Source: Dictyostelium discoideum (taxonomy: Eukaryota). From it: a stretch of 64,000 nucleotides of DNA. Positions 1 to 57,984 of this stretch are shown piece by piece (within the stretch, counting starts at the first letter, position 1; each line of letters begins with the position of its first letter). The notes beneath the pieces were generated by a model that was not told the origin of the DNA, ran no database searches, and saw only the letters and a program-made list of their open reading frames with translations. Location of the stretch: assembly GCA_000004695.1 (NCBI GenBank), contig CM000151.3, positions 2,112,001 to 2,176,000 of the forward strand, given 5' to 3'. A program made the translations under genes and the position numbers.

Positions 1-1956
<1,956 letters not shown>

Positions 1957-2191
1957 CTTTTAATTTATTTATTATTATTTGTAAACAAAAATCTAATGCT
2001 CAAAAAATGAAAAAAAAAAAAAAGTTTGAAAAAGAAAAAATAAAAAAAAATAAAAAATAAAAAATAAAAAAAAAAATTGGCGCACTTTTTCGACGCTATT
2101 TTCTTAGAAAAGTGTTAATCTAAATTTTAAACGATAATGATAAACTAATAAACTAATAAATTGGATTTTTTTTTTTTATATACAAGAATAA

Positions 2192-3084: not shown

Positions 3085-3200
3085 TAAAATCTTTCAATAA
3101 AGACTAGCAACATCAATGACGACCACAAATTTCAATAACAACACCAATGATATTTCTTTCCACTCCCATTCCAAACCATCACAGCCGCAAAATGCTACCC
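3085..3200 (-). pseudogene. Degenerate fragment related to the 3' part of the hssA-like gene at 4293..4516
   Basis: GC-richer island. Minus-strand frames give ...NIIGVVIEICGRH* and VAFCGCDGLEWEW..., which resemble ...[18 protein letters not shown] / [11 protein letters not shown] but carry stops and frame breaks. Confidence 0.3.
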
Positions 3201-3213
3201 CAACTTTCTCCAC

Positions 3214-3270
<57 letters not shown>

Positions 3271-3599
3271 ATCTTAAAAAAAAACAAATCAAAAAAAATT
3301 TTAATGTATAAGAATAATAAATAAAGATTTATTATTTGCTGATTTAATTGTTGAATTTGTAAAAATAATTGTTGGTAATAATTTCTCATTGAAATACTAC
3401 TATTATTATTATCCTTATTATTATTTGTAATATCTAATAAATCTATATATTGATTAGTTTGAATTGTATGCATTTCTTTTGAAATGGATTTAATTTGATT
3501 TTCTTTTACTAAAAGTATATGTTTAGTATTCACTCTTTTTATAAAATTATTATATTGAGATGGTAACTTTATGTGATTTGGTAATTGATGAGATTTCAT
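3195..3599 (-). CDS. Small basic/coiled-coil protein, tandem family copy 2 (C-terminus reads through into a poly-F low-complexity tail and is probably slightly mis-terminated)
   Basis: ATG MKSHQLPNHIKLPSQYNNFIKRVNTKHILLVKENQIKSISKEMHTIQTNQYIDLLDIT...NYYQQLFLQIQQLNQQIINL. Paralog of 2192..2527. Confidence 0.55.
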
Positions 3600-4175
3600 A
3601 TGGTTTAAACATTTTAAATATAATGGATCATTATTGTCTATTTTAATCTCTTGAAGTTCATTTAATTTCTAAATTTATTTAAAATAAATAATTAAAAAAA
3701 AAAAAAAAAAAACAAAAAAAAAAAAAGTGTAAGTTTTTTTTGTTTTAAAAATAAAAAAAATAAATGATAGAGATATAAAGATATGGATATACATACAGTA
3801 TATCCAATACAAAATAATTTTATAATTTCTAAATTATTTTTATTATCGCTTTGTTTTTCATTAATAATTGAGTATGTTGGAATTTGAATTTTGTGTTAAA
3901 GTTATTTCTAAAATTTGAATATTTTAATAATGATTTGATTTTTTAAAATTACATTCTTTTATACAAAGGTTTTTTTTTTTTTTATTAATATTGTTTTTAG
4001 TAAACTAAATGACTGAAACCATAATTTAAAAAAAAAAAAAAAAAAAAAATCCAAAAATGACACCACCCAGAAAATTAAAATCTGAAAAATAATTAAAAAA
4101 AAAAAAAAAAAATCCAAAAATAAAAAAAAAAACATGGGGTTTTAAGTAAAAAAAAAACTAAAAATGTAAAATTAG

Positions 4176-5003: not shown

Positions 5004-5300
5004 TTAATAAAGATTTATTATTTGATTATTTAATTGTTGAATTTGTTGTTTAAGATGTTGAATTTGTAAAAATAATTGTTGGTAATAATTTCTTATTGAA
5101 ATACCACTATTATTATCATTGTTGTTTGTGATATCTAATAAATCTATATATTGAGTTGTTTGAATTGTATGCATTTCTTTTGAAATGGATTTAATTTGAT
5201 TTTCTTTTACTAAAATTATATGTTTAGTATTCACTCTTTTTATAAAATTATTATATTGAGATGGTAACTTTATGTGATTTGGTAATTGATGAGACTTCAT
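5004..5300 (-). CDS. Small basic/coiled-coil protein, tandem family copy 3
   Basis: MKSHQLPNHIKLPSQYNNFIKRVNTKHIILVKENQIKSISKEMHTIQTTQYIDLLDIT...NYYQQLFLQIQHLKQQIQQLNNQIINLY. The ORF-track start 5309 is TTG; real ATG at about 5300. Confidence 0.6.
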   Translation of the reverse strand: MKSHQLPNHIKLPSQYNNFIKRVNTKHIILVKENQIKSISKEMHTIQTTQYIDLLDITNNNDNNSGISIRNYYQQLFLQIQHLKQQIQQLNNQIINLY

Positions 5301-6090
5301 ATGATCCAAACATTTTATATATAATGGATCATTAATATCTATTTTATTCTCTTGAAGTTCATTTAATTTCTATTTTTATTTTAAAAAATAAAAAAATTAA
5401 AAAATAAAAAAAGTGTTAGTATTTTGTTTTTAAAAAAAAAAAAAAAATAAAAAATTAAGATACTCAAACAATTTACTGACACAAAAAAAAAAATAGCATT
5501 GTATAAAAGAATGTAATTTTTTAAAAATGAATTCATTATCAAAACATTCCCAATAGTTATTTCAAGTAATTTTTAAATTAAACTCATCAACACAAAATGC
5601 AAATTCCAACATACACAATTATTAATAATGAAAAACATTTAACTTATATCAAAAAATAAATTAAAAAAATAAAAAAAAAAAAATTTAAGGTTTAACACCA
5701 CCAAAAAAAAAAAAAAAAAAATTGTGAAAAAAAAAAAAAAAAAGATTTTTGTAGTTATCACCTTTGAAATTCTTTTTTTTTTTATTTTTTTTTAAAATAT
5801 CTTGAATCTTAATTTCCTTTTTCACACTTTTTTTTAATAAACAATTTTTTGTTTTTTTATTTTTTAATTAACATATTTGTGTGAATAATTCAATCACGAT
5901 TGCGGTAATTTCTAAAATAAAAAATTTTCACCAAATTTTTTATTTTTTTTTATTTTTTTTTTTTTTTATTTTTTTATTTTTATTTTTTTTTTTTTTTTTT
6001 ATTGTCAATTTTGATCAGTCCCTCACAAGTTCATATTTTATTTTTAAATCAAACCAATAAAATAAGAAATAAAAAAATAAAAAATAAGAA

Positions 6091-6531
6091 ATGAGTATTG
6101 GTATACCAGTTAAAATTTTACATGAAGCAGATGGACATATAGTAACAGTGGAGTTAAAAAATGGTGAACTTTATAGAGGTACATTAATAGAGAGTGAAGA
6201 TAATATGAATTGTAGAATGAAGAATATTACAGTCACAGCAAGAGATGGCAGAAACTCTCAAATGGAATATTGTTATGTTAGAGGTAGTAAAGTTCGTTTC
6301 ATCATTTTACCAGATATCTTGAAAAATGCACCAATGTTCAAGAGAATCGATGGTCGTGTAGTACTTAAAGGTAAAGCATTAGGTATTGGTAAAGGTGCAA
6401 CCTTTGAACGTGGTAATTTCAGAGGTGGCCGTGGTGGTGGTGGTGATCGTGGTGGTTTCAAAGGTGGTCGTGGCGGTGGAGGTCGTGGTGGTTCTATGAA
6501 TACTTTCCAACAAAGAAGAGGTCCACAATAA
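6091..6531 (+). CDS. snrpD3: Small nuclear ribonucleoprotein Sm D3
   Basis: [84 protein letters not shown]... matches the SmD3 Sm fold almost residue-for-residue. C-terminal RG/GRGGGG tail (sDMA-type). Confidence 0.95.
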
Positions 6532-14876: not shown

Positions 14877-17800
14877 TTACTTTTTTTGTTTTAAATGATT
14901 AATAATCATTTGATTTATAATTTCTAAATTATTTTCTTGAATGGTGTCAGTATTACTATTACTATATTTTGTAATTATATTATGAAGTTGTAAATATTTA
15001 TAAACACAAGAAGAATTATTTGAATCTGTTAAAATTTGAATCCAATCATTAAATTCAATCTGTTTACAATTAAATTCACATTTTAATATTTGATTAATCT
15101 GTTGTGAATTTATATTATTATTATTACTATTATTATTATTTAAATTAATTGTATTAAATAATAATTTTCCTTTTTCATTATCATGCTCATAATAATTTTG
15201 ATTATTTATTTGATTTATAATTAAATTTGATAAATGATTAATTGGAATGGTTGGATATGATGTAGAAACGTTTGGATAAAATCCAATTGAATGACAAGAT
15301 TGTAAAAATAATTGTAATAATTCATTTTCATTTCCTAAACCAGTTTCAATATTTGAAAAAATTGGAGGAATTCTTATCATTGTTGATGGTATATTAAATT
15401 TTATTGAACAATCTTTTAGAAAATGTTCAATTAATAAACTACTTTGAATTTTTCCACTTGATAATGGTAATTTTTCAATTGATTCAAAATTTGGAATTTC
15501 AATACTATTATATTCATTTTCATTAATAAATTCATTTGATATTCCTAAATAAATATATATTGATGATATATTTATAATTGAAATTTTATTATTATTATTA
15601 TTATTATTATTATCATTATTATTACAATAACCATTAATTATTAAAGATTTAATTAATTCTTTAACCAAATTTAATTCAGTTTCATTAAATTCTTGTTCAA
15701 ATAAAATTGAATCTTGAAATGAATCACTTGAAACAATAATTATTAAATTTATATCATTATTTTTGATGAATAATTGATTATAGTCTTTTTCTGATGAAAC
15801 TGATATAATATTAATTTTTGAAATTTCATTTTGATTTAAATTAAAATATAATTGATGGTACTTTAGGCTTTGAATTATTAAATCAATTGATGTATTTAAA
15901 CAATAAACTATAGAACAATTTGAATCTTTAACTAAATTAAATAATAAATAAGTACTTAAATAACCACCACTTGAAAAAGGGAATAATATTCTTTTATTAT
16001 TTTTACTAGTACCACCATTTTTAGTAATATTTACATACGATGATGTTGATGATGAAAATTCATTACCAATAACTTTTAATTTAATTTGTTTTTTCCAAAA
16101 TTTTAAATTTTTAACATTATTATTTTTACTTTTACCCCCAATGAATGAACCAGTTTTAATATTTTCATTATTATTTGATTGTTGATTACTATCTTTTATT
16201 TTTTTATTATCAATAGCTGTAATGATAATTTTAATTACTAAAGAGATTGTATTATTTTGAATTTGTTGAATTGTAATAATATTTGGAGAGATTTCTTTAT
16301 CTATCCAATTTTTTAATTGAACAGTTAATAATGAGTCTGCACCATAATCAAGTAATCGTAAATCTTGATTAATTTTAGATGATTCAATTGAAAGGAATTC
16401 TGATATTTTATTAATGAAAATATCTTTAATATTTAATGAATCTACAACTTTTCCACCACCACCACTGCCACTACTACTATTGGAACCACCACCACCACCA
16501 TCGATTGAATTAATAATAAAATCAAATTTTTGTTTAGGAATTTGAGCATTTACTTTAAAAGCTGGAAAATTGAAATTACAAATTAAAAGATTTGTTGATA
16601 AATGTTGATTTTGAATTTGTAAATCTAATGAACCTAAAATTAAATTTGTAGAGATTGGATTTAAACCTTGACCAACTAACATTTCACCAACTGATTCAAA
16701 TCTTGATACAAATCCTGCATCACCTAAAGAACCATAATTTGTACAAATTGATGGTAACCCAATTGATTTTCTAAATCTTGATAATGAATCTAAAACATTA
16801 TTCGCACAAACATAAGAACATTGTTTTGAAGAACCGATGATTGAAGCAATTGAAGATGCCATTACAAATTGTTTTAATTTCCAATTCCTCTTTATCGATT
16901 GATTATGTAAATTAATTGCACCAAATGTTTTTGCACCATGTGAAATATCCAAACTTTCCATATCAATTTTATTAACTTTTCTAGAAACTTGTTGAAATGC
17001 AAAATGAAAAATTGAATCAACATTATTTATCAATGGATTATCTTTTAATATTTGATCGATTGATTCATTTACTAAACTTTCATTACAAATATCAATACTC
17101 TTAAAATGAAATCTAATATTTGAATTATTGTTTACTAATAATTCTAATTCCCATTTCATTGGTGATTTTGAAAATATTATAATATCTTTAACACAATCTG
17201 AAAATTTAACAATCCATTTTAATATCTCTAAAACTATCCCCGTTTGACCTGTAACTAATATTGTTGAACCTAAATTATCATTATTTATTTTATAATTTGA
17301 TTTTAAAATTGGTTCCTTAACATCAATACTACCACTACCACTACTACTACCACTACTACTACTACTATTGAAATTATTATTTTCAATTAATTTATTTATT
17401 AAATTAATATTATTATTTACAATAATTTTACCAATATGTTTACGTTCATTTATAAATTCAATTGCTTCTTTTATTTTTAAATTTGAATATTCATTAATTG
17501 GTATTAAATTTAATTGATTATTTTCAATTGCATTTGATATTTGTAAAAATAAAATTTGAAGTTTTCTTTTATTTATAAATAATAATTCAACATTATGATA
17601 ACCATAATTATATTTGAATTTACTAAAATCTATATATTCATTTGGATTTAAATGAGTGATTGATAAATCAACGATTCTACCACCACATTCCAAACATTTG
17701 AAATTTGAATCTAAATAATCACTTGATAATGTATTCAATATTAAATCAACACCTTTTTTATTTGATCCCAATTGTTTTAATTTTAATTTAATTTGTTTTA

Positions 17801-19037
17801 CATAATCTTTATTTCTTGTTGAATAAATTCCAGTGATAAAATCACCATAGGTGTCAATAAGATATTGCTCTTTCTCTTTTGAACCTACTGTAACGAATAG
17901 ATGTGATTTATGACCTTTCCATTTCAATATATTCAATGCAGATAAACCAACACCACCAGTACCTGAATGAATTAAAATTGATTCATTATCTTGGATATTG
18001 AAATTACCAATATTGAATATTGAATATAAAGATGTTAAATACACTGCTGGTATTGATGCTGCCTCTGAGTGGCTTAAATTGGTTGGTTTCTTTACAATGT
18101 AATCTTTATCAATGATAATATGAGAAGATGACGAATCGAACGCAATTCCATAAACTTCATCACCCACTTTAAATTGATCTTCACCACAATCTTTTCCAAC
18201 CCTTGTAATGATACCAGAGAAATCAATACCAATCTCTGGATTGTTAATATCACCTTTACGATTACAAATCTCTGGCGGAACCAATCCACAATATACTAAA
18301 TAATCTTTATAATTCACTCCTAAACTTAATACATTCACTTCAACCTTATTCGATTTAATAATTTCTTTTCTCGATTTTAATTTATATTCTAAATTTGATG
18401 TTAATTTTAAATAAACATTTGAAAAAGAATCATTACTAACACCAATACCATATTCAAATGAATTTGATTTAAATGTATTGATTAAATTTTTAATTGATTC
18501 TTTTTTATATCTTTCATAATAAATTTCATTATTCATTATTATAAATTCCTTTTGAGTATTAATAGTCTCATCAATTAAAGAATCAATTTTTGAAATTAAA
18601 TTTAAATTTTCAATTGATTGTTGATCAAAATCTATATAGAAAAGTTGTAATTGTTCTGAAAACTCTTCAAAATACTTTGCAGCTCCAATAACTGATGCTG
18701 ATAAATAATTTTTACCATTATTTACATTGGTTGTAATTAAAACATGTTTACATTTTAAATTATTTGATGATAATAATCTCTTATTAATTTCAATAAATTC
18801 AAATGTTACCAATTTAAAATTTTCAAAGTTTAATTGTTCAATAGGTTTAATAAAATAAATTATTGATTTATTTGTAATAATATTTGATTCTTCTAATTCT
18901 ATAAATTCTTTAATACTTGAAATTTTAATAATAATTTTAAATGAATAAATTGATTCTAACATTTTAATAAAATGATTATTATTATTCTTATTATCTTTAT
19001 CAATTTCATTACAAAATATAATAACATTATCTTCATA

Positions 19038-19118
<81 letters not shown>

Positions 19119-22100
19119 ATTAATTTCTAGAATTGATGGTTTTTTACAATGAATTAAAAAAGAAACTGATTCTAATTCTTTTGACATTATTATATATTTA
19201 AAATTATGATTTGTTAATAAATCGAACCAAGATTGTTGATTCATACAACAACTATCTTTTCTGATATCAGTATCTTGAAATGACCACCACTGATTGAAAA
19301 CACCAAATACATTATCTAGAATTATTGAATTAAATGGTGGTTCTATAAATAATAATTGACCATTTGGTACAAGAACTTTATAAATTTGATCAATTGAAAA
19401 TCTAATATCTTTAACCACATGTAATACATTTGACATTATTACATAATCATAATATGAATATTTCAAATTTTGTTTTTCAATTAATGGTTCTTCTAAATCT
19501 AATGAACGATAAATTATTTTTATACCAAATTTACCACCATCTAAATCTAAATCATTATTATTCTCATTATTATTATTATTATTATTATTGTTTATAATTT
19601 TTGATAATTTTAATTTTGCATCTGGTATGAATGACGTTGAAATATCACTCCATGTATATTCAATATCAATTTGATTAAAAACATTATTACTCTCTTCAAG
19701 TAATTGAGTAATTTTATTTAATACAACCATTGATAATGAAGAAACACCACCACCAAATTCTAAAATTCTTATTGTGATTTTCTCTTTTTTCAATACCAAT
19801 GGTTTAATAGATTCTTTAATAATTTCAGCAAGTAATTGATGATTTTTTGCAACAAATTCAGTATCTGAATAAAATTTATCAAGTAAACCATCTTCAAATA
19901 AAATTTGTGGACTATCTAAATTTGAATCATTTTCATTTTCAAATGGAAATAATTGTTTTGAAATTACTCTAGTTGATCTCTTTAAAATTTTATAATTATT
20001 ATTATTTTCCATTTGTTTTTTTAATTCTTTAAAATTATTATTATTATTATTTTTATAACCAAACATTTTTATAGTTTTAAAAACTGATTTAAATAATCTT
20101 TCATATTGAATTGAATTTTCTAAATTTTTATTAATAAAAATTGATTTAAAATTTAAAAATAATTGATCAATTGATTGATTTTCAATTTCTTTAATTGTTA
20201 TATTTGAATTTCTTTTATTAATATTTAAAAACAATGAAGATGATATAAAATTTTGATAAATTGAAATATTTGAACTATAGATATCTTTTGATTTAAATTG
20301 ATCAGATTCATAAAGTGATTTAAATGATGAAGGTGCACCAATTGGTGAATCTCTTGGTTGTAAATATCTTGAATATACTAAATCAATTGGATATTCAATT
20401 TCTAAGGGATTTTTAACTATTTTTAATGATTTACAAATTACTCTTTCAATTTCAATTAAAATCGTACCATCTTTTAACATTATAATAATTGATGCTAAAT
20501 ATGAATTTCCTAATCTTGATTTAAATTTTGAATAAACGAAAATACTATTATTACTACTATTAATATCATTTGTTTCATATACTTGTAAATTTGATGAATA
20601 ATATTTTAATCCTTCAATTTTATGAAAAACTAGTTGACAATTTTCTTGAATTAATGCAATCATTCCATGTAAACAACTATCTAATAATTGTGTTTTAAAA
20701 AATGATTTTGATGTTGATGAATTAACAGTAACTTCTGATAAAGAACAACTATCACCTAAAAAACACTGAATAACACCTTGAAATTCATCATTATAAGTTA
20801 AACCTGTTTTTGATTTTATATGTTGATATAAATCAATTCTTGATATTTTTGTTTTATTACACTTTTTTGAAATTATTTCTTGTAAATTTAATTTTTTATT
20901 ATTATTATTATTATTACTATTATTATTATTACTATTATTATTATTTAATAATTGAAAATTAGCAATACATGATTGTACCCATTCATTTGATTTATTATCT
21001 TTAAAGTGATAATAAAGTTTAAATTCAGTTTTACCAGTTTGGAAAACATTTGTTTGTAAACATTGATTAATACCATCTATTAAAATTAATGGTGATTTAA
21101 ATTCCATTGAACTAATAGTCAAATCTTGTGATGGATATAATTTCAATAGATTATCAATGTAACCACAACCTGGGAAATAGTATTTACCATTTACAATATG
21201 ACCTTTAAGATATTTGAATGGTTCTTTCTTTATATCAATAAATGTTTGATATGATTTAACATTTGATGAATTATCATAGTTTGATAAACCAAGTATATCA
21301 ATTGGTGGTCCCTCAATTCTATGTTTTTGTTGAATCAAATCTTCTTTCCAATACTTTTCATCATCCCATTGATAATTTGGTAATGGTTGTGGTTGTGGTT
21401 GTTGTAGTGGTGGTATTACTGTGTGGTTGTGGTTATTAATACTACCACAATCAAATTGTGATTTAAAATTAATATTATATCTATTTTCACAATAAAGTTT
21501 AGCAATTGTTTTTTGAATCTCCATAGTATCATTCTTTTTCTTATGAAGTGGTGAATAAATTGATATTTTCCCACTAAAATAATTTGTTGATACAGGTATC
21601 ATTTGTTTTAAATAAAATTGTAATGTTGGATGTGGTGCTAATTCAATGAATACAATATCAGTTCCCAATTTATTTATTTCAATATGTTTATATAAATTTG
21701 ATATAGTTTGTGAAAATTTAACTGGTTCTACTATATTATTATAAATATATTCAGAGTTAAATGGTGTTGTTGTTGTTTCTACATTATTATTATTATTATT
21801 ACTATTATTATTGCTATCATTAAAATTATTATAATATAAATTTGTTGTAACAGTTGAGAAAATTGGTATTTTTGGTAATTCATAATCAATATTTAATTTT
21901 GAAATATCATCTTTTACTATTTTTTGATTTGAAGTATGGAAAGATGATAATGAAGCTAACATTTTTGAGAAAATTCCTTTATCTTTTAATTCATTTGATA
22001 TTTGATTTAATTGTTGTTCTTTACCTCCTAATACAATTGAATTTGGTGAATTGTAACATGCAATTTCAATATCTGGGTATTTAGTTGAATAATTTGATGA

Positions 22101-22898
22101 TAAATAATCTTCAGAGCTAATATTAACTGATAACATTCTACCACCATTACAATGTGTTTGAATTTGTGCTAATGATCTATGATAAATTAAATAACATAAA
22201 GTATCCAATGTAATCATACCTGAGCAATAAGCTGCTGGAATCTCACCTAAACTATGACCAACTATAAATGATGCTTCAATACCCCAATGTTTATAAAATT
22301 CAAATAATGATATAGCTAACATACACATTATTGGTTGTGCGATTGTTGGATGTTGAATACTAATATCATCATCATGATCAGTAATTGATATGAATTTTTC
22401 AAAAACTGAATAACCATAATATTTAAATAATTTATTATCAAACATATTGATTGATTGTTTGAAAATTGGTTCACTATTATATAATTCCATTGCCATTCTA
22501 CTATATTGTGAACCTTGACCTGCAAATACAAATACAACTATAGGATTCTTACTATGAACCATTGACATTGTTGATGACTTTGAATTTAATGTTTGAACTC
22601 TATTTAATTGTTCTTTCTCTTCTCCTTCTCTTTCTTTTTCTTTTTCTTTTTCTTTTTGTGATTGTTTTTGTTTATTAAATTCATCCCAATTTGAAACCGA
22701 AAAAATTACTAAACGTTGATAAAGTGATAAAGATTTATTAAAAATTTGATTTTTAACAAATTCATTAAAATTTATTTTTAATTGAAATTCTTCACTTTCA
22801 ATAATTGATTGATATTTCTTTAATGATAAAGTTGAATTTGCTGAAAAAGGTATTAAATACTTTTTTGGTTGACTATTATCATATTGCTGCTGTCCTCG

Positions 22899-22960
<62 letters not shown>

Positions 22961-24353
22961 GATTTTCATTATTTTTAAATTGTGATAAAATTAAACAACA
23001 ATTTGAACCAGTAATACCAAAACTATTGATTAACATTGTTATTTGTTTATTTGTATTAAATTGAATTGGTTCAGTTACAACTTTTAAATTCCATTCATTA
23101 AATTTAATCATTGGATTTGGTTTATTAAAATTAATATTTGGAACAAAGTAACCATTTTTAAACATTAAACAACATTTAATTAATGATGCAACACCCGATG
23201 CTGCCTCTAAATGACCAATTGAGCTTTTAATTGACCCAATTAATAATGGTTGTTGAGTTGTATTATTATTACTACCACTACAACTACCACTACCAATAGC
23301 AATATCATTTAATTGTTTAAATGAATTTGAAATTGCTTCTAATTCAATTGGATCGCCAGTTGGTGTACCAGTACCATGTGCTTCAATATAATCGATATTA
23401 TTGAATTTAATTTTACCATTGGTTGATTGAATTGCCATTTTAATATTTTCACACTGTGATATTGATGAAGGTGAAAAAAAGTTTTGTTTATCTTTTAAAC
23501 CACCACCATCAACATTTGAACTTGCACCATTGATAATACAATAAATGGTATTACCATCTGATAATGCTTGTTTTAAACTTTTTAAAACCACAATTCCAAC
23601 ACCTTCTCCTCTGACATATCCATCAGCACTTTCATCAAATGTCATACACCTTGCTGTACCATTAGTTGATTTACTTAACATATTTAAATGGGTGAATGAT
23701 TTTGAAACGTTTGTATCCAACAATAAATTTACACCACCGACAATTGATAAATTACAATTGTTCTGCTTACTGAATTTAATTGATTGGTAACCCATTTTAA
23801 TAGCATTCAATGATGATGAACATGCTGTATCAATTGTAATTGATTCATTACGAAAATCAAAACAATATGATATACGATTTGAAATTGAATGATTTGTCAA
23901 CCCGAATATATTAGATTTGTTATTATTCATTTGATTTTGTTGTTGATTTTGATAATCATTAGTTGAACAACCAATGAAAACTGATGTATTTGAACCACGA
24001 ATTTTCATTGGATCAATTCTTGCATCTTCTAATGCTTCCCATGTACATTTTAATAATAGTCTTTGTTGTGGATCAATGCTTGGTGCTTCTGATGGATTAA
24101 TACCAAAAAATAATGGATCAAATGATTTCCATTCATCAAGTGGTAATAAACCAGCATTTCCATTTGAAATTTCACCCAATTCATTGAAATTATCACTCCA
24201 TCTTTCTCTACTTTCAATAATACCATCAAATCCATTCATTAAATTATCCCATAATTCAATTGGTGAATCATTTGATTTAGAAATATCTCCCGATGGTAAT
24301 CTAAATCCAATACCAACAATTGCAATTTCATCATTATCATCAATAATATTATT

Positions 24354-24400
<47 letters not shown>

Positions 24401-24401
24401 T
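14877..24401 (-). CDS. Type I iterative polyketide synthase, 3174 aa: KS - poly-Q linker - AT - DH - C-methyltransferase - ER - KR - ACP - about 450-aa C-terminal domain of unknown function
   Basis: KS (IAIVGIGFRLP...DTACSSSL...HGTGTPTGDP...GHLEAASG). AT (GQGSQY...GHSLGE). DH-like (HxxxG...GHIVNGKYYFPGCGYID). MT (LEFGGGVSSLS, SAM-binding). ER (LIHSGTGGVGLSA). KR (ILVTGQTGIVLEIL). ACP (LDYGADSLLTVQLKNWI). 22-Gln tract from (CAA)n between KS and AT. Confidence 0.92.
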
Positions 24402-25293
24402 ATTTTTGTTATTATTATTATTAAATTTATAAATGAGAATATTAGTAAATTAATAATTTTATATGTTTTAAAAAAAAAAAAAATTTTAATAATAAAATAA
24501 AATTAAATTAAATATATATTAATAGTTAATTAATTAATCTTACTTTTAAACCTTTTTAGAAATTTATCGTTTTTCAAATAAAATTTATTTACTAAAAAAA
24601 CTTCATTTTATCTCTTTATATCTGTTGCAGAATATACAAACTCAAATGAATGAAGAAAAAAAAAAAAAATTGAAAAAAAAAATTGTAAAAAAAAAAAAAA
24701 AAAGAATATTAACAAAAACACCAAATCGACACAAAAAAAAAAAAAAAAAAAAATCTCATTTTTATATCATTTTATGTATGTTTGGGTGCTCTTTTTTTCT
24801 TAAAATAAATAAAATTAAATAATTAATAAAAAAAAAATGAATAATAAAATGAAAAAAAAATAAAATAATGGTGCAGATCTAATCTTTTTAAACCACAAAA
24901 TATAGATTTTTTTTTGAAAATTATTTAATTATCTATTGTAAAAAAATTACACTTTAAAATTTCATTTTTTCATTCAAAAAAAAATAACAAGTAAAATGTT
25001 AATTATTAAATAATTAATTATTAATTACCTTAAAAATCACACCGGTTTTTTCACATGCAAAAAAAAAGAAAATGCTAAAAGTAATTTTTTTTTTTTAAAA
25101 TAATAACAAACTCCCAACTTCCGACACTTTTAAAACCCAAAAACATTGGGGAGTTAAAAAAAGAAAAATGATTTGATCTCTTGGAAGTTTTCAAATTTAT
25201 TTTTAAAAGGAAAAAAAAAAAAATAAAAAAAGATTCAGACTTTTTTATACTTCCATTTACGATTGGGTGAACTTAATCCTGGTCCCAATGTTG

Positions 25294-25324
<31 letters not shown>

Positions 25325-25568
25325 TATTAAGACTTGATTTCAAAGAATGAAAAAAAAAAAAAAAAAAACACCAAAATATGTTAACCTAAAAAAAAGATAA
25401 AAAAAAAAGGCAATGAAATGAATTTTTGATTTTTTGAAAGCATCGACTGGAAAAAAAAAAATTATAAAAAAATAAAAAAAATTAGATATTTTATTGTCAG
25501 TTAAAAATCCTTTTTTTTTTTTTTTTTTATTTTTTTTTTTTTTATCTTTTTTTTTATTTTTTTTTTTT

Positions 25569-25612
25569 CTCACCCCACACAATCACAAAATCAAACCCCC
25601 ACACTCTGACAC
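25569..25612. promoter_or_regulatory. C-rich element (CTCACCCCACACAATCACAAAATCAAACCCCCACACTCTGACAC) in the 1.4-kb divergent intergenic region between the PKS (ATG 24401, -) and the collagen-like/PH gene (ATG 25821, +)
   Basis: Only C-rich island in the spacer. Resembles CA-rich/GBF-type CAEs. Confidence 0.35.
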
Positions 25613-25820
25613 AAAAATAAAAAAAATAATAATATAAAAATAAAAAATAAAACATTGTTTTTTATTTTTAATTTTTTAACTTTTGTTTTTTTTTTTTTTT
25701 TTTTTTTTTTTATTGGTTCAATTGAAACAATTGTTTCAGCAAATATTATAAGTATTAATATAAAAATAAAACAATAAAAAAACAATTATTTATTTTTATA
25801 AAAAAAAAAAAATTTAAAAG

Positions 25821-28800
25821 ATGGCAACTACCAATGTAGTTGCAAGTTTATTGAACAATGGTGTTCATGGTGCAGGTAAATATTTAAATATTGGGCATTA
25901 AAAAATAAAAAATAAAAAATAAAAAATAAATTTCAAGATCGGAATCTAATTATTGTTTTTTTTTATTAATTTTATTCCAAATAATTTCAAAAACAAATGA
26001 ATTATTAATGATTTTATTATAATAATAATTTTCAAAAAGATGGTCCAAATGGTCTTCATGGTGGTAGTGGAGGATATGGTGGTGGACGTGGTGGTGATGT
26101 AAGTTTTTTTTTTTTTCTCCAAACCATTAATAAAAGATTTTAAAATTATAAATATGTATACTAAATTATATTTTTATTTTTTTTATTTTTTTTTTTTTTT
26201 AAAAAAAAATAAAGGGATCTAGAGGTGCAGATGGTAATCATGGTACACCATCAGGTAGTATTGAAGTTTTTTTGGCAACAGATGGAATTAAAAATATTTT
26301 AGTAGATTATACATTAGGACCAACACCAATTCATCATGAAATTAGAAAAGGAGTTGAACCATTGGAATTAGGTAATCCTCAAACACATCTCTATTTATCA
26401 TCTAGAGGAGGAGATGGTGGTTGCGGTGGTCGTGGTGGTGATGGTGGTAGTGGTGGTCCTGGTAGCGCAGGTATGAATGCCACAAGACATAGTTCAGGTA
26501 CAAATGGTGGACCTGGTGGTAATGGTGGTAGTGGTGGTAATGGTGGTAGTGGTGGATCGTCAGGTAATGGTAATGATATTACAATTAGGAATAATCAAGA
26601 AGATATGGATTTGTTAATGATTTTAAAACAAGGAGTTAGTGATACAGGTCCAGGTATACCTGGAAAGGGTGGTGATAAAGGTCATGGTGGTAGAGGTGGA
26701 CCAGGAGGACCAGGTGGTAACTCTTATAGTTGGAGTGAAAGTTATCAAGTTTCAGATGGTAGAGGTGGTACAACAACTCAATATAGACATCATACAAATC
26801 CAGGTGGTATTAGTAAGTTTAAATTTAAATTCTAACATTAAAAAAGGAAAAAAAAAAAAAAAAAAAAATACTAACGAAAAAAAAAAAAAAAAAAAATAGG
26901 TGGTCCAAGTGGACATAGTGGTAGTAATGGTATTGGTAAGTTTAAATTTAAATTTTATTATTGAAAAAAAAGGAAAAAAAAAAAAAAAAAAATTACTAAT
27001 TTTAAAAAAAAAAAAAAAAAAATACTAGATGGTAATAATGGTATTTCAGGTATACCAGGAAAATATTCAATTTTATTAAATACTCATGAATATGGAGTTG
27101 TTAGATATGAAGCACCATATGATTTACATGTTGAAAAGATAAGATATATAGATACGATTGGATATAATATAATTGAACCAGATTCAGATGTTAGATTAAG
27201 TGTTGATCATTTAAATGTTGGTGGTATGCCAACACCATCACATCAAAATATTATGGCATATGTTGGTGATAATGGTTGGGTTGAATGTCCAATAGAGAAT
27301 AGGGTTGCAATGCAAAGATGGATAGTAGAGAAAACCAAATCAAGTTTACCAAAGGAAATTATATTTCATATTAAAGATTATCGTCATGATATTAGAGTGT
27401 TACCAAGAAATCCATTTATTCAAAGTTCTACAATGGATCATCAATGTTTAGTGGATCGTATCAATCAAAGCTTTGCAAGAGTATCAGCTACCAAATCACC
27501 ATTTACCATTGAATATCCAGTTCAGTCATCGATTATCAAAGGTTTAGACTGTGTCACAATGACAGATGAGGCACCATTTACCTATAGTATTTGGAATAAA
27601 TCATTACTATCGATTGGTGTTGAGTCGAATGAGTTTGATAAAAAATCACCAAATCGTGTTTTATTTACAACTCTTAAAATTAATTTAAATACACGTGGTG
27701 GTAATACATCAATTAACGCAACCGATATTATAGTGAGAGATGTTAATGGTAAAATATTCAATAATCCAGAGAATGGATTATATTCAACCATTGAATTAAT
27801 TAATCCACAACAATTGAAATTTGCATCGGCCACAATGACATTTGTAAATCCTGATATTAAACCATACACTCGTGTTTTGGTTGAGTCTTCACTTTATTTA
27901 GGTCATATTAAAGACATGATCAATTCACCACAACCAATCCAATCTAGACCATTTGAAATTCAATTATCAGAGGGTTACTTATCATCATTATTCAATTGTG
28001 ACATTTTATTAGTGGTTAACAACCAATCGGAATACGATGAAATCACTCAATGGAAGTTATTAGCCCATCAATTAGGTTTAACATTAAATGTTTGGAATTC
28101 TGGTTTATATCAAGGTTTTATGTTAAATCATAGAAAAGCAGATGGTCGTACACTTCTTCAAGATTTTAGATCAAAAACAATCATTTATCTAGATAATAAC
28201 TATGTAAAGGATGAATTGTTATATCCAGCCTCTGAGTATATTAGATCAAAAGAATTTTTAAATGCTGCCTATCATCATGGTATTCATGTTTTAATGGTTG
28301 GTAAAAATTTCTCAATCGAGAATGAAATCTTCCCAATTAATACATTTGAAAGAGCAACTTTGGTTTATTATAAACAACATAAACAATTATTATACGCTTT
28401 AAAACATAGAATTCCTTCTGGCACTGGTTGTGGTCAAATTATACCACCACATATGGCTGTTGATGATAATGGTGATCTATCATTAAATCTATTAGTTGAT
28501 AAAAAGAATGAATATTTCATTGTAATCTTTAGACAATTAACCCTACTTTCAATCTTTAAAAAATCAAATTCACTCTACCCAATTAAAACAATTCATTTAG
28601 ATAGTTTTAATTTAACTTGTTTAACTCAACCACATTCTGAAACTAATGAAATCATTACAATTAATTTAGAATTTCAACATTTAGGTTTTAAAATTAATTT
28701 TTCACCATCAAAAGATAAAAAACTTAAAGAAAATTCAATTTCAAAAATTCAACAATTTTTTGAAATTTTACAACAAATTAAAACTTTATCACCAATTAAT

Positions 28801-31410
28801 AATAATAATAATAATAATAATATAAATATAAATGAAAATAATAATAATAATAATTTAAATGGTTTAAATGTTTCAGGTGGTGGTGAAAGAAAAAGTGTTG
28901 GTCCAATTTCAACAATAATTGAAGATGATAATGATATTTATGGTGGTTATTTGTATGTTAAATTTAAAGCAGAAGGATCATATAAAAAATATTATTTCAA
29001 TTTATTAACAAATGCAAAGGTATTACATCAACGTGAAGAAAAGAGTAAAAAAAAATCTAACAACAACAATGTTGCAATTAAAATATTAAATTTAAAGAGA
29101 TTTTCATTGACAAGAGGTAATCAATTTGGTACAGAGAAACAACATCATTTACAAACTTTCCAATTGGTTACACCAGAGACAACTTGGTACTTTAGAACTA
29201 GTTCAAATGATGAATATCAAGAATGGTTAAGTAGATTATCACCAATGTCAATTGAATATAATCTAACCTATTCTGAGCCATCGTCGGTGGTTAAGGACCA
29301 AATCATTTTAAAGAAAGAGGATGCAAGAGGTATACATTTATCACCAAGAACTCCAATTTTAGAAGAGAAGCATATACCAATCATTCAAGTTGTTGATAGA
29401 TTTGTCATTGGAAAACCAAAGGAAAAAGATTTAATAAAGTATGCAGAGAAATTATCGGAAAAGTTAAATTCACGTTTCCCAAATCAAAGAAATATTGTTG
29501 TCTATGAATTTAAACCAAAACAAACTGACGGCTGGAAGAGAATGACACTTGGTAATGTTGAAGTACATAGATCACTAGATAAAATTCAACCACATTTTGC
29601 AAAACTTAATATTGAACAAGATGTTTATATTCATAGTCCAACAATGATTCAAACACCTTCAACCATTTATCATTTCTTTAAAGTTTTAGATTTTAGAGAG
29701 AAATTATCCCTATTGGATAGTTTAGCAGAAAATTTATATTCAAATGATGAAACTTTGAATTTACTCTCAAATATTTCATCTCAATCTAAATTAGGTTTAT
29801 TACTCTTATCAATTTGTTCAGATCTTGCTGAAGAACAACATTGGTTTAGAGATGGTTCAAATTGGAGAGATAAATTATCAATTGATAAAATTAAATTAAA
29901 TTTATTAAAATTAAATATTTTAAAGAATTTCCAATTCAATTCTTATAATAATAGTAATTCAACAAATGTTACAACTAGATTATCTTTACCAATTTCAGAT
30001 CTTTTAATTGAAATTGGTGCTCACTTAAAGATAATTCTTTCAAATTTCCCTAAAAACTTTGCTGATAAAATTTGTTTACGTCGTAGAGCTAATGATGTTA
30101 CTGATGCTTCAAATTCGCTTTGGAATGATATTGTCATGATTCATCTATTTGGTAAAGAATTAAAAGATGATAAACCTATTGGTAAATCTAATCCAAATGA
30201 ATCTCAACTTTTAAAATCAATTAAAGAAACTGAATTGAAAAAACAAAAAGAATGGCAAAATCATTTATTCACTCAACATGGTTCAACTGGTAGTTGGGGT
30301 TACAATTGTACAAAAGCTGATCCTTCAAAAAATAAAAAAGAGAAACGTTGGATTAAAGGCGCCCATGTTATTTTAGCTTATAGAAAACCACCCTTCACTT
30401 CTGTAACAAGTGTTATCGATTGTGAAATCCTTTTACCAACCATTATGTCAAAGCAATCATTCCTTTCAAACTATGTTCCTCCAGTTCAAGGTAGTGCAAT
30501 CGTTGAAGAAAGAACTATTTTCGGTAATAATCAAGAGGCTCGTCAACAATTTATAAATCGTATTGCAACTGAGAAACTAGGTTTCGATATTAATAATACT
30601 GATAGATCATCACATTTAACAGTTTTAGAAAATTATTCAACAATATTTAATAATAATAATCAATCATTAATTCCAGTTGTTCAATTAGAAAAACCAACTG
30701 ATTCAATGACTCAAATTTTACCAAATTCTTATTCTTCAACCGAACCTCTTTCCTCAACCCCTTCTGATAATATTATTAGTATAGATTTAACAAAGAATTT
30801 CCAATCACCTCCAACTACAACTGAAAAACAATTTATTATTGGTGATGATTCAAATGATAATAATAATCTAATTAATAATTCTTTTGAACCTTCAATGGTA
30901 ATTCCATTATCACATTCAAATAATCAACAACAACAACAACAACAACAAGGAGTTAGTGAACCATCTTCGCCTGTGATCATTGACGGAGCTTCAAAACATC
31001 AATATCAAAATGCTGAAAATAATATTATTAACAACGACACCACTACCACTACCACCATTACAGAAACGACTACATCAACAGTTAAAATTGAGAAATTAGA
31101 GAAAAAAGAAGATTTATCAAACACTTCATCATCATCAACACCATCATCATCAACACCATCATCATCAACAATTTCTTCACCATTATTACAACCAATCATT
31201 ACAGTAAACGAGCAAAATATTGAAATTTCTTTAACAACAGCAACTACAATAACACCAGTAATTGAAGAACCATCACCTTTAACAACACCTTCATCTTTAT
31301 CATTATCAATCTCTTCACCATTTTTACCTGAAGAAAATAATAATAATAATAACATCAGTAATAATACAACAAAAGAAGATGATTTAGTAATTGAAGAACA
31401 CCACAATTAA
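25821..31410 (+). CDS. Large (about 1530 aa) protein: collagen-like G-X-Y/(GGX)n Gly-rich N-terminus, central PH domain, Ser/Thr-rich tail. 5 exons (25821..25875, 26040..26098, 26215..26812, 26900..26935, 27029..31410)
   Basis: Exons joined by GTAAAT/GTAAGT...AG introns with preserved phases. MATTNVVASLLNNGVHGAG|DGPNGLHGGSGGYGGGRGGD|GSRGADGNHGTPSG...GGDGGCGGRGGDGGSGGPGSAG...GPGIPGKGGDKGHGGRGGPGGPGG...|SGPSGHSGSNGIG|DGNNGISGIPGKYS...MPTPSH... PH domain near GYLYVKFKAEGSYKKYYFNLLTN...TWYFRTSSNDEYQEWLSRL. Confidence 0.7.
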
Positions 31411-38156: not shown

Positions 38157-39857
<1,701 letters not shown>

Positions 39858-40165
39858 TGTTGCTTTAAATTTGTGAAAAAATTAAAATATTAAAAATTTT
39901 TTTTTTATTATTGGCTGTTAATAAAAAAAAAAAGAAAAAAAAAAGAAAAAAATAAAAAAAATTAAAATAAAAAAAAAAAAATAAAATAAAAAAAAAAATA
40001 AAAAAAAAAATAAAAAGAAAAAAAAAAGAAAAAAATAAAAAAAATTAAAATAAAAAAAAAAATTAAAATAAATTCACAAATTTGGGTCGCCAAGTATAAA
40101 AAAAAAAATAAAAAAAAATAAATAAAAAATAAAAAAAAACTAATTCACTAAACAAATTATTATTT

Positions 40166-40301: not shown

Positions 40302-41897
40302 TTATTTTTTATAATCCAATAAAATTACTGGATTGAAATTTTCAGTTTCATAATTGAAAACAAATTTAACTAATTTTAAACTATTTAGATGTTGCTTATT
40401 TTTATCGATTAATGATTGATACGGTTGAATCATATCGGGTCTACCATTAACTTCAACTATACTGACAGAAAAATCAGTGATAGTTTTATTTTGTTCTAAA
40501 ATTCTCTCTATTAATTGTGGACAGTTAATACCTGTACCAAATGATTCCATTGATGTGCTTGATGAAATTAGTGATGAAAATCTTTCAATAAATGTTTTTG
40601 ATGGTGATTGTTTACATAGTAGTATTTGAGATGCATAACATTCATGAAAGAATTCTAAACTTTTTAGGGTTTTATTATTTTTCAAGGCTTCTTTTAAGAG
40701 TCCAATTTTATTGAATTCCTCATTCACTTCCATTGAATTTGAAGGATTCTTATTTCACTTATCACAATTACATTTTTTAATTTTTGATTTCTTTCTTTCA
40801 GTTTTTGTCGATAAATAATATATTAAATTATTAAAACAAATACTAATTACAAGCTGACTTACTTTCTTTGAATAATTTAAAATTAATTCTAAATCTTTTA
40901 ATGAAACTTCCATTGAAAATATTTTTAAAAATTCTATATTTTCTAAATAATTAATTTTTTCATTATATTTCTTATTTTCTTCATTATTATTATTATTAAA
41001 AGGTATAATACCAGCTAATATTGGAAATAATTGCATTTTATCTTGTTGAGAAGTATATTTTATAATGAATAATTGAGCAATTGAATTTTTATATTGTTTA
41101 AATGATTCGATAATGAGTTCATTATCAAAACATGAATTAATTTTCAAAGTAAATACCTTTTTAACATGTTTTTTTATTTTATTTAAAGATTTAAATGTAA
41201 AAATTGGATTTAAATCTAATTCTAATAGATGAATATTACCATCAGTCGCTTCACATCGATAAAGTGATTGTAAAATATCAGTATCTTCAGTCTCGTTTGA
41301 TGATGATATATTTCTTAATATTAAGTTTTTAAATATAATTGTTTGTTGTTGTTGTTGTTGTTTTTGATTTTCTAATAATGATAAAGTTGATGGTATGGTT
41401 GTTTTTAATTTTGATAATTTTTCTAATTCTTTATTAACTATATCCAATTCTATTATTTTTTCATCAGATTTATCGTCATCAAAAATATCATTATCTTTTG
41501 GTGATTGTTTTTTATCTTTTTCATAAATACTAATATCTTTAATATAAAAGAATGAACCTTGATGATCGAAATGTAATTTCAATGTTTTTAAATTCTCTTT
41601 TTTAATTATTGAATATTTTAAATCAATGTCATTTTTATTATTATTATTATTATTATTATTTTTATTATGATTTAAATTTGTATAATTAAAATCAACTGAT
41701 ACAGTTAAATTATTTGATAAAGTTTTAAACCAATCTTGAGATACTAATGCCAATGTTAACATTAATCTTTTAATTTGACTTTCATTCCCTCTATAGTCAC
41801 CACCAACATAATCAATTGATTTATTATTTTTATCTATATATCTACATAAAATTTTAATTATATATTTTTGAATATATAATGGTAATAACACAACCAT
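40302..41897 (-). pseudogene. Copy B of the F-box/LRR-like gene: split into two ORFs by a 1-nt deletion near 40745, poly-N tracts collapsed to 8 and 5 Asn, extra small indel (SIYEKDKKQSPKDNDIFDDDKSD insertion)
   Basis: ORFs 40755..41897 and 40302..40733 are each about 90% identical to parts of 38157..39857. The frameshift shows at ...AATTTGAAGGATTCTTATTTCACTTATCAC vs copy A ...AATTTGAAGGATTTCTAATTAAACTATCAC. Confidence 0.6.
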
Positions 41898-42359
41898 TGT
41901 TGCTTTAAATTTGTAAAAAAATTAAAATATTAAAATTTTTTTTTTTATTATTGGCTGTTAATAAAAAAAAAAAAGAAAAAAAAAAAGAAAAAAATAAAAC
42001 AAATTAAAATAAAATGAAAAATAAAAAAAAAAAAAAAAAAAAATTAAATAAAAAAAAAAAAAAAAAAAATAAATTGTTATGTTTTTCTTAAAATTTTAAA
42101 TATCATGGGGTTTGAAAATAGATTTTTTAAAATTCCAGATTTAAAAAAACTTAATTTGAAATAGAAAAAATAAGGTGGATGGATGTAAAAAGTTCAGAAT
42201 TAAAGTGGAAAAGTAAGTTCTAAACGTTTTTATTTACTGGTCGCAGCCCCCCTTTATAAAAAAAAAAAAAATACAAACATGTACAATTTTTTTTTTTTTT
42301 TTTTTTTTAATAAACTAAAAAAAATGAAAAAAATAATTATTTTATGTTTATTATATTTT

Positions 42360-57650: not shown

Positions 57651-57984
57651 TTTTTTTTTTTTTTGATTTATTTACTTTTTCTTTTTTTTTTTTTTTTTTT
57701 TTTTTTTGGTTTAATATCTTCTAAAATAATAAATAACAATAAATGTTTTTAAAGGAAAAAAAAGCTAATAATTTAATGATTATACAAATCAAAAGAATAA
57801 AAAAAAAAACCAAATGTATTTCCTTACATTATGTGATACCAATTTGATAACTTTTTTTTTTAATCAAATGGGAAATAAATAAATTATAAATTAATATTAA
57901 TTTTTTTAAATAATATTTTCAAATGAAATATAAGGTTCATACAATGCCCAATTTTTTACTACCCTCCCTTTTTTTTTTTTTATT

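Follow-up and report, generated by a model that had tools for sequence, protein, structure and literature searches.

A conserved glycine-rich head domain, probably containing polyglycine-II segments, in a DUF7932 protein of Dictyostelium discoideum

Folded assemblies of glycine-rich polyproline-II (PPII) or polyglycine-II (PGII) helices form a small, recently recognised structural class. Examples include antifreeze proteins, the Obg translation factor, carboxylating enzymes, the tip of a phage tail fibre and the ALK/LTK kinases (bioRxiv 10.1101/2023.11.25.568672), and PGII sandwiches and bundles are defined by glycines that point inward in GGX triplets (PMC9436101; bioRxiv 10.1101/2023.11.25.568672). 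Here we describe a candidate for this class in Dictyostelium discoideum. It is encoded at the 5' end of a gene lying at 25821-31410 on the + strand of a 64,000-nucleotide stretch of contig CM000151.3 (the whole of which we call the window), and residues are numbered on the 1709-residue spliced product. An initial annotation had read the N-terminus of this protein as a collagen-like repeat joined to a PH-domain protein. Our best overall explanation, to which we assign a probability of about 0.6, is that the N-terminus is the compact head, of some 280 residues, of an ancient cytosolic family marked by the DUF7932 domain, that this head contains PGII segments, and that the protein serves as a scaffold.

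The glycine-rich head and its predicted structure

The head occupies the following span.

25821..27123, + strand: glycine-rich N-terminal domain, residues 1-281 (coding span including four introns), delimited by conservation and the AlphaFold2 model

Glycine accounts for 28.5% of residues 1-281, compared with 3.7% of the remainder of the protein. Pairs of glycines three residues apart number 57 in this region, whereas 5000 composition-preserving shuffles yield 22.3 +/- 3.4 and never exceed 36; the recurrence of glycine at every third residue described in the initial annotation is therefore far above chance. The glycines fall into four segments (residues 12-53, 101-159, 182-208 and 234-261) that alternate with β-strands. 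Within them the runs are short (7-9 triplets), slip in phase (at G26/G27, for example) and are separated by β-strand segments, the longest uninterrupted G-X-Y run being a clean (G-X-Y)9 from G236 to G260. Proline makes up 5.7%, X or Y is often itself glycine (giving GGX), and the DNA encoding the region has local repeat periods of 3 and 9 nucleotides.

The pattern is strongly conserved. In an alignment of 24 sequences from bacteria, ciliates, amoebae and a fungus, the N-terminal region can be followed column for column, with 29 invariant glycine columns and the conserved non-glycine motifs DATRxSSG, SYSWTE and NPGG. Across a larger alignment of 67 sequences, glycine reaches at least 90% in 51 columns, and the column pattern GG.GG.GG.GG.Gg.G..G combines glycine positions of zero entropy with X positions of high entropy. 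When residues 1-279 alone were searched exhaustively with HMMER against 1.84 billion cluster representatives, 592 clusters (50% identity) matched at E <= 1e-3 and 309 at E <= 1e-10. The best 150 of the 592 matches each comprise one or two stretches, usually covering most of the domain, and are of near-equal length, which marks the head as a discrete domain of fixed length. No Pfam-A model covers residues 1-281, the Pfam matches of the whole protein being DUF7932 and PH only, and a search of NCBIfam gave no match.

AlphaFold2, run on residues 1-291 with the 67-sequence alignment, predicts a compact monomeric domain with ten β-strands and one helix (residues 166-175). The model has a mean predicted local distance difference test score (pLDDT) of 94.4 and a predicted template modelling score (pTM) of 0.80, and all five models lie between 93.0 and 94.4 in pLDDT. 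The glycine-rich segments, about 156 residues in all, are predicted at pLDDT 96-98, and DSSP assigns them neither helix (H) nor strand (E).

Does the periodicity reflect a collagen-like stalk, in which the G-X-Y runs would bring three chains together as a triple helix? Like collagen (PF01391) and the bacterial collagen-like proteins, the head repeats glycine with a period of three, far beyond what chance would give, and has one clean (G-X-Y)9 stretch (residues 236-260), and 3 of the 24 homologues give weak matches to Pfam Collagen, all below the cutoff of 27.2 bits. The window protein itself has no match to that hidden Markov model (HMM) at E <= 1. Where collagen has long, imino-rich (G-X-Y)n, the runs here reach at most nine triplets, are broken by phase slips, are poor in proline and frequently carry glycine at X or Y. 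Moreover, the segments are interleaved with conserved β-strands and a helix in a globular model predicted to be monomeric, and the domain keeps its length from bacteria to amoebae. Read directly, the protein lacks an N-terminal signal sequence, and the modules with which family members are fused (PH, J-domain and U-box) are cytosolic. The proposed resemblance to a triple helix thus does not survive comparison: the Collagen HMM, run length, proline content, conservation and the AlphaFold2 model together led us to reject it, and we regard a collagen-like stalk as very improbable.

A disordered region of the Gly/Arg-rich (RGG/GAR-like) low-complexity kind, serving in RNA binding or condensates, is the other familiar reading of such a composition. 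Strings such as GGRGG, GRGGD and RGGPGG are present in this open reading frame (ORF), the DNA is locally repetitive with periods of 3 and 9 nucleotides, and other ORFs of the window have glycine-rich tails of low complexity. Set against this, glycine is conserved by position and the domain by length in bacteria and eukaryotes alike, arginine falls on the variable X positions, and a pLDDT of 94 contrasts with the low confidence typical of disorder. Disorder of the RGG/GAR type was rejected on the pLDDT of 94.4, the 51 columns with at least 90% glycine and the conserved length, and its chances seem to us very slight. One of the tails just mentioned, the Gly/Arg-rich C-terminus of an Sm-like ORF at 6088-6528 (+), appears to be genuine RGG-type low complexity, in contrast to the conserved glycine-rich domain described here. 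Given the conservation and the confidence of the AlphaFold2 models, we hold with high confidence that residues 1-281 are a folded, conserved domain, neither collagen nor disorder.

What, then, might the glycine-rich segments form? Published descriptions of the PGII class call for conserved glycine in one or two places of each triplet, over at least three to four triplets, with a variable third position; the head has runs of 7-9 such triplets, and its segments are ordered in the AlphaFold2 model yet neither α-helical nor β-stranded. Because this conservation pattern fits the published accounts, we read the head as a hybrid of PGII helices and β-sheet, and consider it probable that the segments are of PGII type, the geometry of the helices being deduced from the model and the alignment. 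A Foldseek search of the head model against the whole PDB returned nothing at E <= 1e-3. The first-ranked match, itself non-significant (E 0.38, TM 0.08/0.22), is the snow-flea antifreeze protein, a textbook PGII bundle. Searches of PDB sequences with the protein and of the PDB with the family profile gave chance-level matches only.

The head, then, is a single compact N-terminal domain of about 280 residues, encoded by four short exons together with the beginning of a fifth. In its segments each three-residue unit has one glycine, and often two (GGX), beside a variable third position. On the PGII reading, the segments would form short left-handed helices of PGII (polyproline-II) type, packed tightly on each other and on the β-sheet since the buried faces leave room for glycine alone. 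On the outside, the variable X side chains would make up a rigid, flat surface to which a partner could bind.

Three points weigh against the PGII reading. First, the backbone geometry and the packing of the helices are predicted, not read from coordinates. Second, Foldseek gave no significant score against the solved PGII bundles (ALK/LTK, gp38, Obg and the snow-flea antifreeze protein). Third, AlphaFold2 may favour PGII-like packing when given GGX repeats. In an alternative reading, the domain is folded, conserved and glycine-rich but free of PGII helices, its segments being irregular tight turns, a solenoid or loops laid on a β-sheet. Such a fold has to contend with GGX triplets in which glycine is invariant at two of three positions and X varies, a pattern by which PGII sandwiches are recognised in the literature (PMC9436101), and with stretches of 27-59 residues at pLDDT 96-98, neither H nor E, which are hard to account for by loops. 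A roll of the RTX type has a 9-residue repeat, whereas the 9-nucleotide period of the DNA corresponds to 3 residues, and an RTX-type β-roll was ruled out on this repeat period. We consider a fold of this non-PGII kind unlikely, if well short of negligible, and prefer PGII-type segments.

Gene model and exon structure

The gene was built from a three-frame translation of 25400-27600, with exons joined at GT..AG sites.

25821-25875, + strand: exon 1, 55 nucleotides; ATG, residues 1-18 and the first base of codon 19; donor GTAAAT after a final G
26040-26098, + strand: exon 2, 59 nucleotides; residues 19-38, DGPNGLHGGSGGYGGGRGGD
26215-26812, + strand: exon 3, 598 nucleotides; residues 39-237, the core of the glycine-rich domain; frame uninterrupted
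26900-26935, + strand: exon 4, 36 nucleotides; residues 238-249, SGPSGHSGSNGI; GTAAGT donor and AG acceptor
27029-31410, + strand: exon 5, 4382 nucleotides including TAA; residues 250-1709 (1460 residues)

The four introns (164, 116, 87 and 93 nucleotides) are all of the GT..AG type and 9-12% G+C, in a window of about 22% G+C whose spacers are very AT-rich and dictyostelid-like. Once spliced, the reading frame stays open over 1709 codons and specifies one protein of 1709 residues. The exon sizes of 55, 59, 598 and 36 nucleotides and the consistent phases proposed at the outset match this rebuilt frame, whereas the protein, put at about 1400 residues, proves longer, with 1460 residues from exon 5 alone. 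All the peptides quoted there can be located in the spliced product, with GSRGADGNHGTP at residues 39-50, GGDGGCGGRGGDGGSGGP at 103-120 and GPGIPGKGGDKGHGGRGGPGGPGG at 183-206; the string across the exon 4/5 junction was slightly off, the correct sequence being SGPSGHSGSNGIDGNNGISGIPGK (...NPGGISGPSGHSGSNGIDGNNGISGIPGK...). The glycine period does, as had been claimed, continue over exon boundaries: G36-G39-G42 spans intron 2, and the run that begins at G236 and ends at G260 crosses introns 3 and 4.

Could the glycine-rich exons nevertheless be part of another gene, or be joined differently? An exact look-up of the 1709-residue sequence in the protein collection found no match, a point in favour of a gene-prediction artefact. 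Comparison with other species points firmly the other way, as do the canonical introns and the 1709-codon open frame. The annotated Dictyostelium purpureum orthologue (XP_003287331 / F0ZIV0) shows 69% identity to the window protein and runs colinear with it from its residue 2 onward; none of the four junctions carries a gap in the alignment, which across exon 3 is broken only by one indel of a single residue. From the D. purpureum genome we reconstructed the exons of this orthologue and mapped them onto the window protein: introns 1 and 2 agree in codon position and phase (after residues 18.33 and 38.0), and the second exon is likewise 59 nucleotides long. Intron-less bacterial homologues, arranged alike in single ORFs, align straight through the splice junctions, and the alignment to homologues has no gap at either junction of exon 4. 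Glycine-rich head and body also stand in a single ORF in the transcript-derived homologues P0007 (from MMETSP and marked complete), P0011 and P0123 (both Trinity). On these alignments we judge the splice model sound and the gene model right, and the likelihood of an artefact close to nil.

The 5' end had been described as intron-rich beside intron-poor neighbours, and the adjoining genes are indeed large single-exon ORFs. It is unremarkable in itself, as D. purpureum has six introns there. The remaining positions differ between the two species (117.33, 192.0, 216.0 and 233.67 in D. purpureum; 237.33 and 249.33 in the window gene). As the first two introns are common and the rest differ, the intron-rich 5' end is a property of both Dictyostelium orthologues that is nonetheless evolving. 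Within the first 1.2 kb, the window gene has four introns (25876-27028) and the D. purpureum locus (L006 3001-4217) six, with two positions in common. Since only these first two positions are common, introns have turned over within GGT-rich coding sequence. Every donor of the window gene consists of G, T or A followed by GTAAGT or GTAAAT, and it may be, though this is speculation, that the glycine codons (GGT) were a source of proto-splice sites.

The DUF7932 body, its relatives and its surroundings

Behind the head, the following regions can be recognised (AlphaFold2 on residues 262-1460: mean pLDDT 86.9, pTM 0.85).

27124..27516, + strand: DUF7932 (PF25560), first β-sandwich, residues 282-412; Pfam E 4e-7, 30.9 bits against a cutoff of 27
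27541..27966, + strand: second β-sandwich, residues 421-562; AlphaFold2 strands at pLDDT of about 95; motif L.PGE...V.F.V.N.S...G
28003..28410, + strand: α/β domain, residues 575-710; alternating strands and helices (AlphaFold2); motifs LLVVNN...W...W(N/D)
28477..28788, + strand: first PH-like module, residues 733-836; assigned by secondary-structure pattern only, seven strands and a long C-terminal helix (AlphaFold2)
residues 838-882: poly-Asn linker, predicted disordered (AlphaFold2)
28939..29241, + strand: PH domain, residues 887-987; Pfam PH
29368..30660, + strand: conserved C-terminal region, residues 1030-1460; β-α-β and helical domain, AlphaFold2 pLDDT mostly 85-96
30661..31407, + strand: low-complexity Ser/Thr/Pro/Asn/Gln-rich tail, residues 1461-1709; from sequence

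The DUF7932 match spans profile positions 2-130 of 130, and the region is all-β in the AlphaFold2 model at pLDDT 92-98, with a conserved EP...N.GGMPTP motif. In the C-terminal region a β-α-β unit (residues 1030-1110) is predicted to precede a helical domain that runs to about residue 1460; the region aligns with the C-termini of bacterial proteins and carries the motifs RFPNQRN, LG.VEVHRSLD and SDL.EEQ. The PH domain and the Ser/Thr/Pro-rich tail of the initial annotation are both present: the peptide quoted for the former lies at residues 888-985, where Pfam PH scores above its gathering threshold and a PH fold is predicted, and the latter includes SSSTPSSSTPSSSTISSP.

An HMM score above the gathering threshold and a colinear full-length architecture place the protein in the DUF7932 family. 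A search with residues 1-839 yielded 231 relatives, with DUF7932 found in nearly all of the 120 listed. Among them are orthologues from dictyostelids and other Amoebozoa, which have both DUF7932 and PH, proteins of ciliates (Tetrahymena, Stylonychia) and of the chytrid Gonapodya, and many bacterial proteins of 1000-1150 residues. Bacterial carriers are found among the Polyangiaceae, Kofleriaceae, Pirellulaceae (among them the cultured Rubripirellula obstinata), metagenome-assembled genomes (MAGs) of Bacteriovoracaceae/Bdellovibrio, Salinisphaera and a Bacteroidia MAG; a search of viral contigs found no relatives there. The family shows a constant order: glycine-rich head, DUF7932, second sandwich, α/β domain and helical C-terminal domain. 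Some members have additional modules, fused independently at the N-terminus, namely a J-domain in three cluster representatives (P0112, P0151 from the diatom Nitzschia sp., and P0207), a U-box in P0115 and P0117, and pentapeptide repeats in P0217. Negative results from the word-indexed searches should be read with care: residues 262-840 gave zero matches although the matches of residues 1-839 align over that region, and the word-indexed search with residues 1-839 failed to return the D. purpureum orthologue, which at 69% identity was recovered by the exhaustive one.

The pairing of glycine repeats with a PH domain had struck the initial annotation as odd. The columns of the PH-like module (residues 733-836) are filled only in amoebozoan orthologues and one unplaced MMETSP transcript, and the PH-bearing columns are empty in bacterial, ciliate and chytrid members and in a dictyostelid paralogue, in which the α/β domain leads straight to the C-terminal domain. 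From this distribution we conclude that the PH region is, on alignment evidence, a lineage-specific insertion into an older architecture. The puzzle of an odd combination is thereby removed, since the full-length relatives that were examined have the head together with the DUF7932 body, and PH was inserted. The segment between β1 and β2 of the PH domain (VKFKAEGSYKKYYF) contains basic residues, but by eye the canonical K-Xn-(K/R)-X-R is not evident. The paralogue just mentioned (P0003, Dictyostelium cf. discoideum, 1262 residues) is PH-less and 58% identical over 80% of the query; because it exists, the family appears to have two or more members in dictyostelids.

Several other features of the window may be recorded. 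Head-to-head with the gene studied here lies an uninterrupted ORF of 3190 codons (14880-24449, -) with an N-terminus of polyketide-synthase type (IAIVGIGFRLPSG), and another, whose N-terminus is similar, is found at 55681-57667 (-). Three tandem paralogous ORFs at 2195-2596, 3198-3668 and 5007-5369 (-), each starting KLNELQE.KID.NDPLY.KCL.HMKSHQLPNHIKLPSQYNNFIKRVNTKHI, appear to form a repeat or a small gene family at this place. Two further tandem paralogues at 38160-39881 and 40305-41921 (-) have near-identical N-terminal (FF.KFKATMVVLLPLYIQKYIIKILCRYIDKNNKSI) and C-terminal (QHLNSLKLVKFVFNYETENFNPVILLDYKK) stretches, and fragments of an MCM-like ORF with a Walker A-type motif lie at the left edge of the window (2-1959, -).

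Possible role and comparison with known systems

What might the protein do? The residues that the family conserves (E299, P300, N312, M316, P317, P319, N439, W591, P1067, G1091 and E1185, the first eight belonging to the invariant non-glycine positions) are structural in type, and no catalytic constellation is evident among the family-conserved residues in our alignments. The J-domain and U-box fusions are hints of a link to Hsp70 and ubiquitin. We tentatively suggest, at somewhat less than even odds, that the protein is a cytosolic, non-enzymatic scaffold with a binding or adaptor role. The rigid glycine-rich head would present its variable surface to a ligand, the two Ig-like β-sandwiches, the α/β domain and the β-α-β and helical C-terminus would make up the rest of the scaffold, and accessory modules would couple this core to cellular machinery: PH to membranes in the window gene, J-domain to Hsp70 and U-box to ubiquitination. 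The PH insertion of the amoebozoan lineage, between the α/β domain and the C-terminus, probably recruits the protein to phosphoinositide-bearing membranes.

This suggestion has its own counterweights. It draws solely on the domain fusions and the missing catalytic motifs, the five bacterial loci examined have no partner gene in common, and a literature search by family name found no paper on DUF7932. As the five bacterial neighbourhoods lack a conserved partner, we draw no inference from operon structure. A PADLOC search gave only three matches of 13-15 bits, below threshold, at chance level and with no stretch passing alone, and thus no link to a defence system.

A bolder proposal would make the head an undescribed hybrid fold of PGII helices and β-sheet, the first of its kind to be both cytosolic and conserved from predatory or complex bacteria (Myxococcota, Planctomycetota, Bdellovibrionota) to free-living protists. 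It would act as the recognition head of a machine that separate lineages couple to Hsp70 (J-domain fusions), to ubiquitination (U-box fusions) or, in Amoebozoa, to phosphoinositide membranes (PH insertion); taken as a whole, we think this unlikely. More soberly, the head is a widely conserved and confidently predicted glycine-rich fold for which the searches made found no solved counterpart, Pfam model or literature, and it is probably a further variant within the small class of PGII-helix assemblies. If so, a cytosolic example of about 280 residues, interleaved with β-sheet and found in bacteria and protists, would broaden that class, offer protein designers a new scaffold and give a first handle on DUF7932, a family with hundreds of members and no assigned function. 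There is also a lesson for annotation: conservation and predicted order should be checked before an N-terminal GGX or GXY region is called 'collagen-like' or 'low complexity'.

Among known proteins, the closest are those annotated as 'PH domain-containing protein' in D. purpureum and 'DUF7932 domain-containing protein' in Rubripirellula reticaptiva, with which the window protein is colinear over its full length; identity to bacterial members is 25-35% over 60-85% of the query. The window gene is an orthologue of these annotated, uncharacterised proteins, and the gene itself is not new. It differs from the D. purpureum orthologue in its longer low-complexity tail (1709 against 1522 residues in all), most of which has no counterpart there, and in part of its intron positions, and from the bacterial, ciliate and chytrid members in its PH insertion. 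In comparison with the PH domains of Osh3, DAPP1, TAPP1 and Grp1, that of the window protein is inserted inside a larger conserved body, and by eye the canonical phosphoinositide motif is not evident in it.

Comparison with the PGII assemblies themselves (the snow-flea antifreeze protein, the tip of phage S16 gp38, ALK/LTK, the N-domain of Obg and the AlphaFold-predicted 'PGII sandwich' of PE_PGRS proteins) reveals both likeness and difference. In common with them, the head has GGX/GXX runs of 3-9 triplets in which glycine is strictly conserved and X varies, and its segments are, by prediction, confidently ordered without helix or strand. It differs in that its glycine-rich segments are interleaved with some ten β-strands and one helix in a single domain of 280 residues, and in having no significant sequence or structural match to them. 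Finally, the window protein would be cytosolic, as opposed to extracellular or placed on a virion or the cell surface, and its family extends from bacteria to protists.

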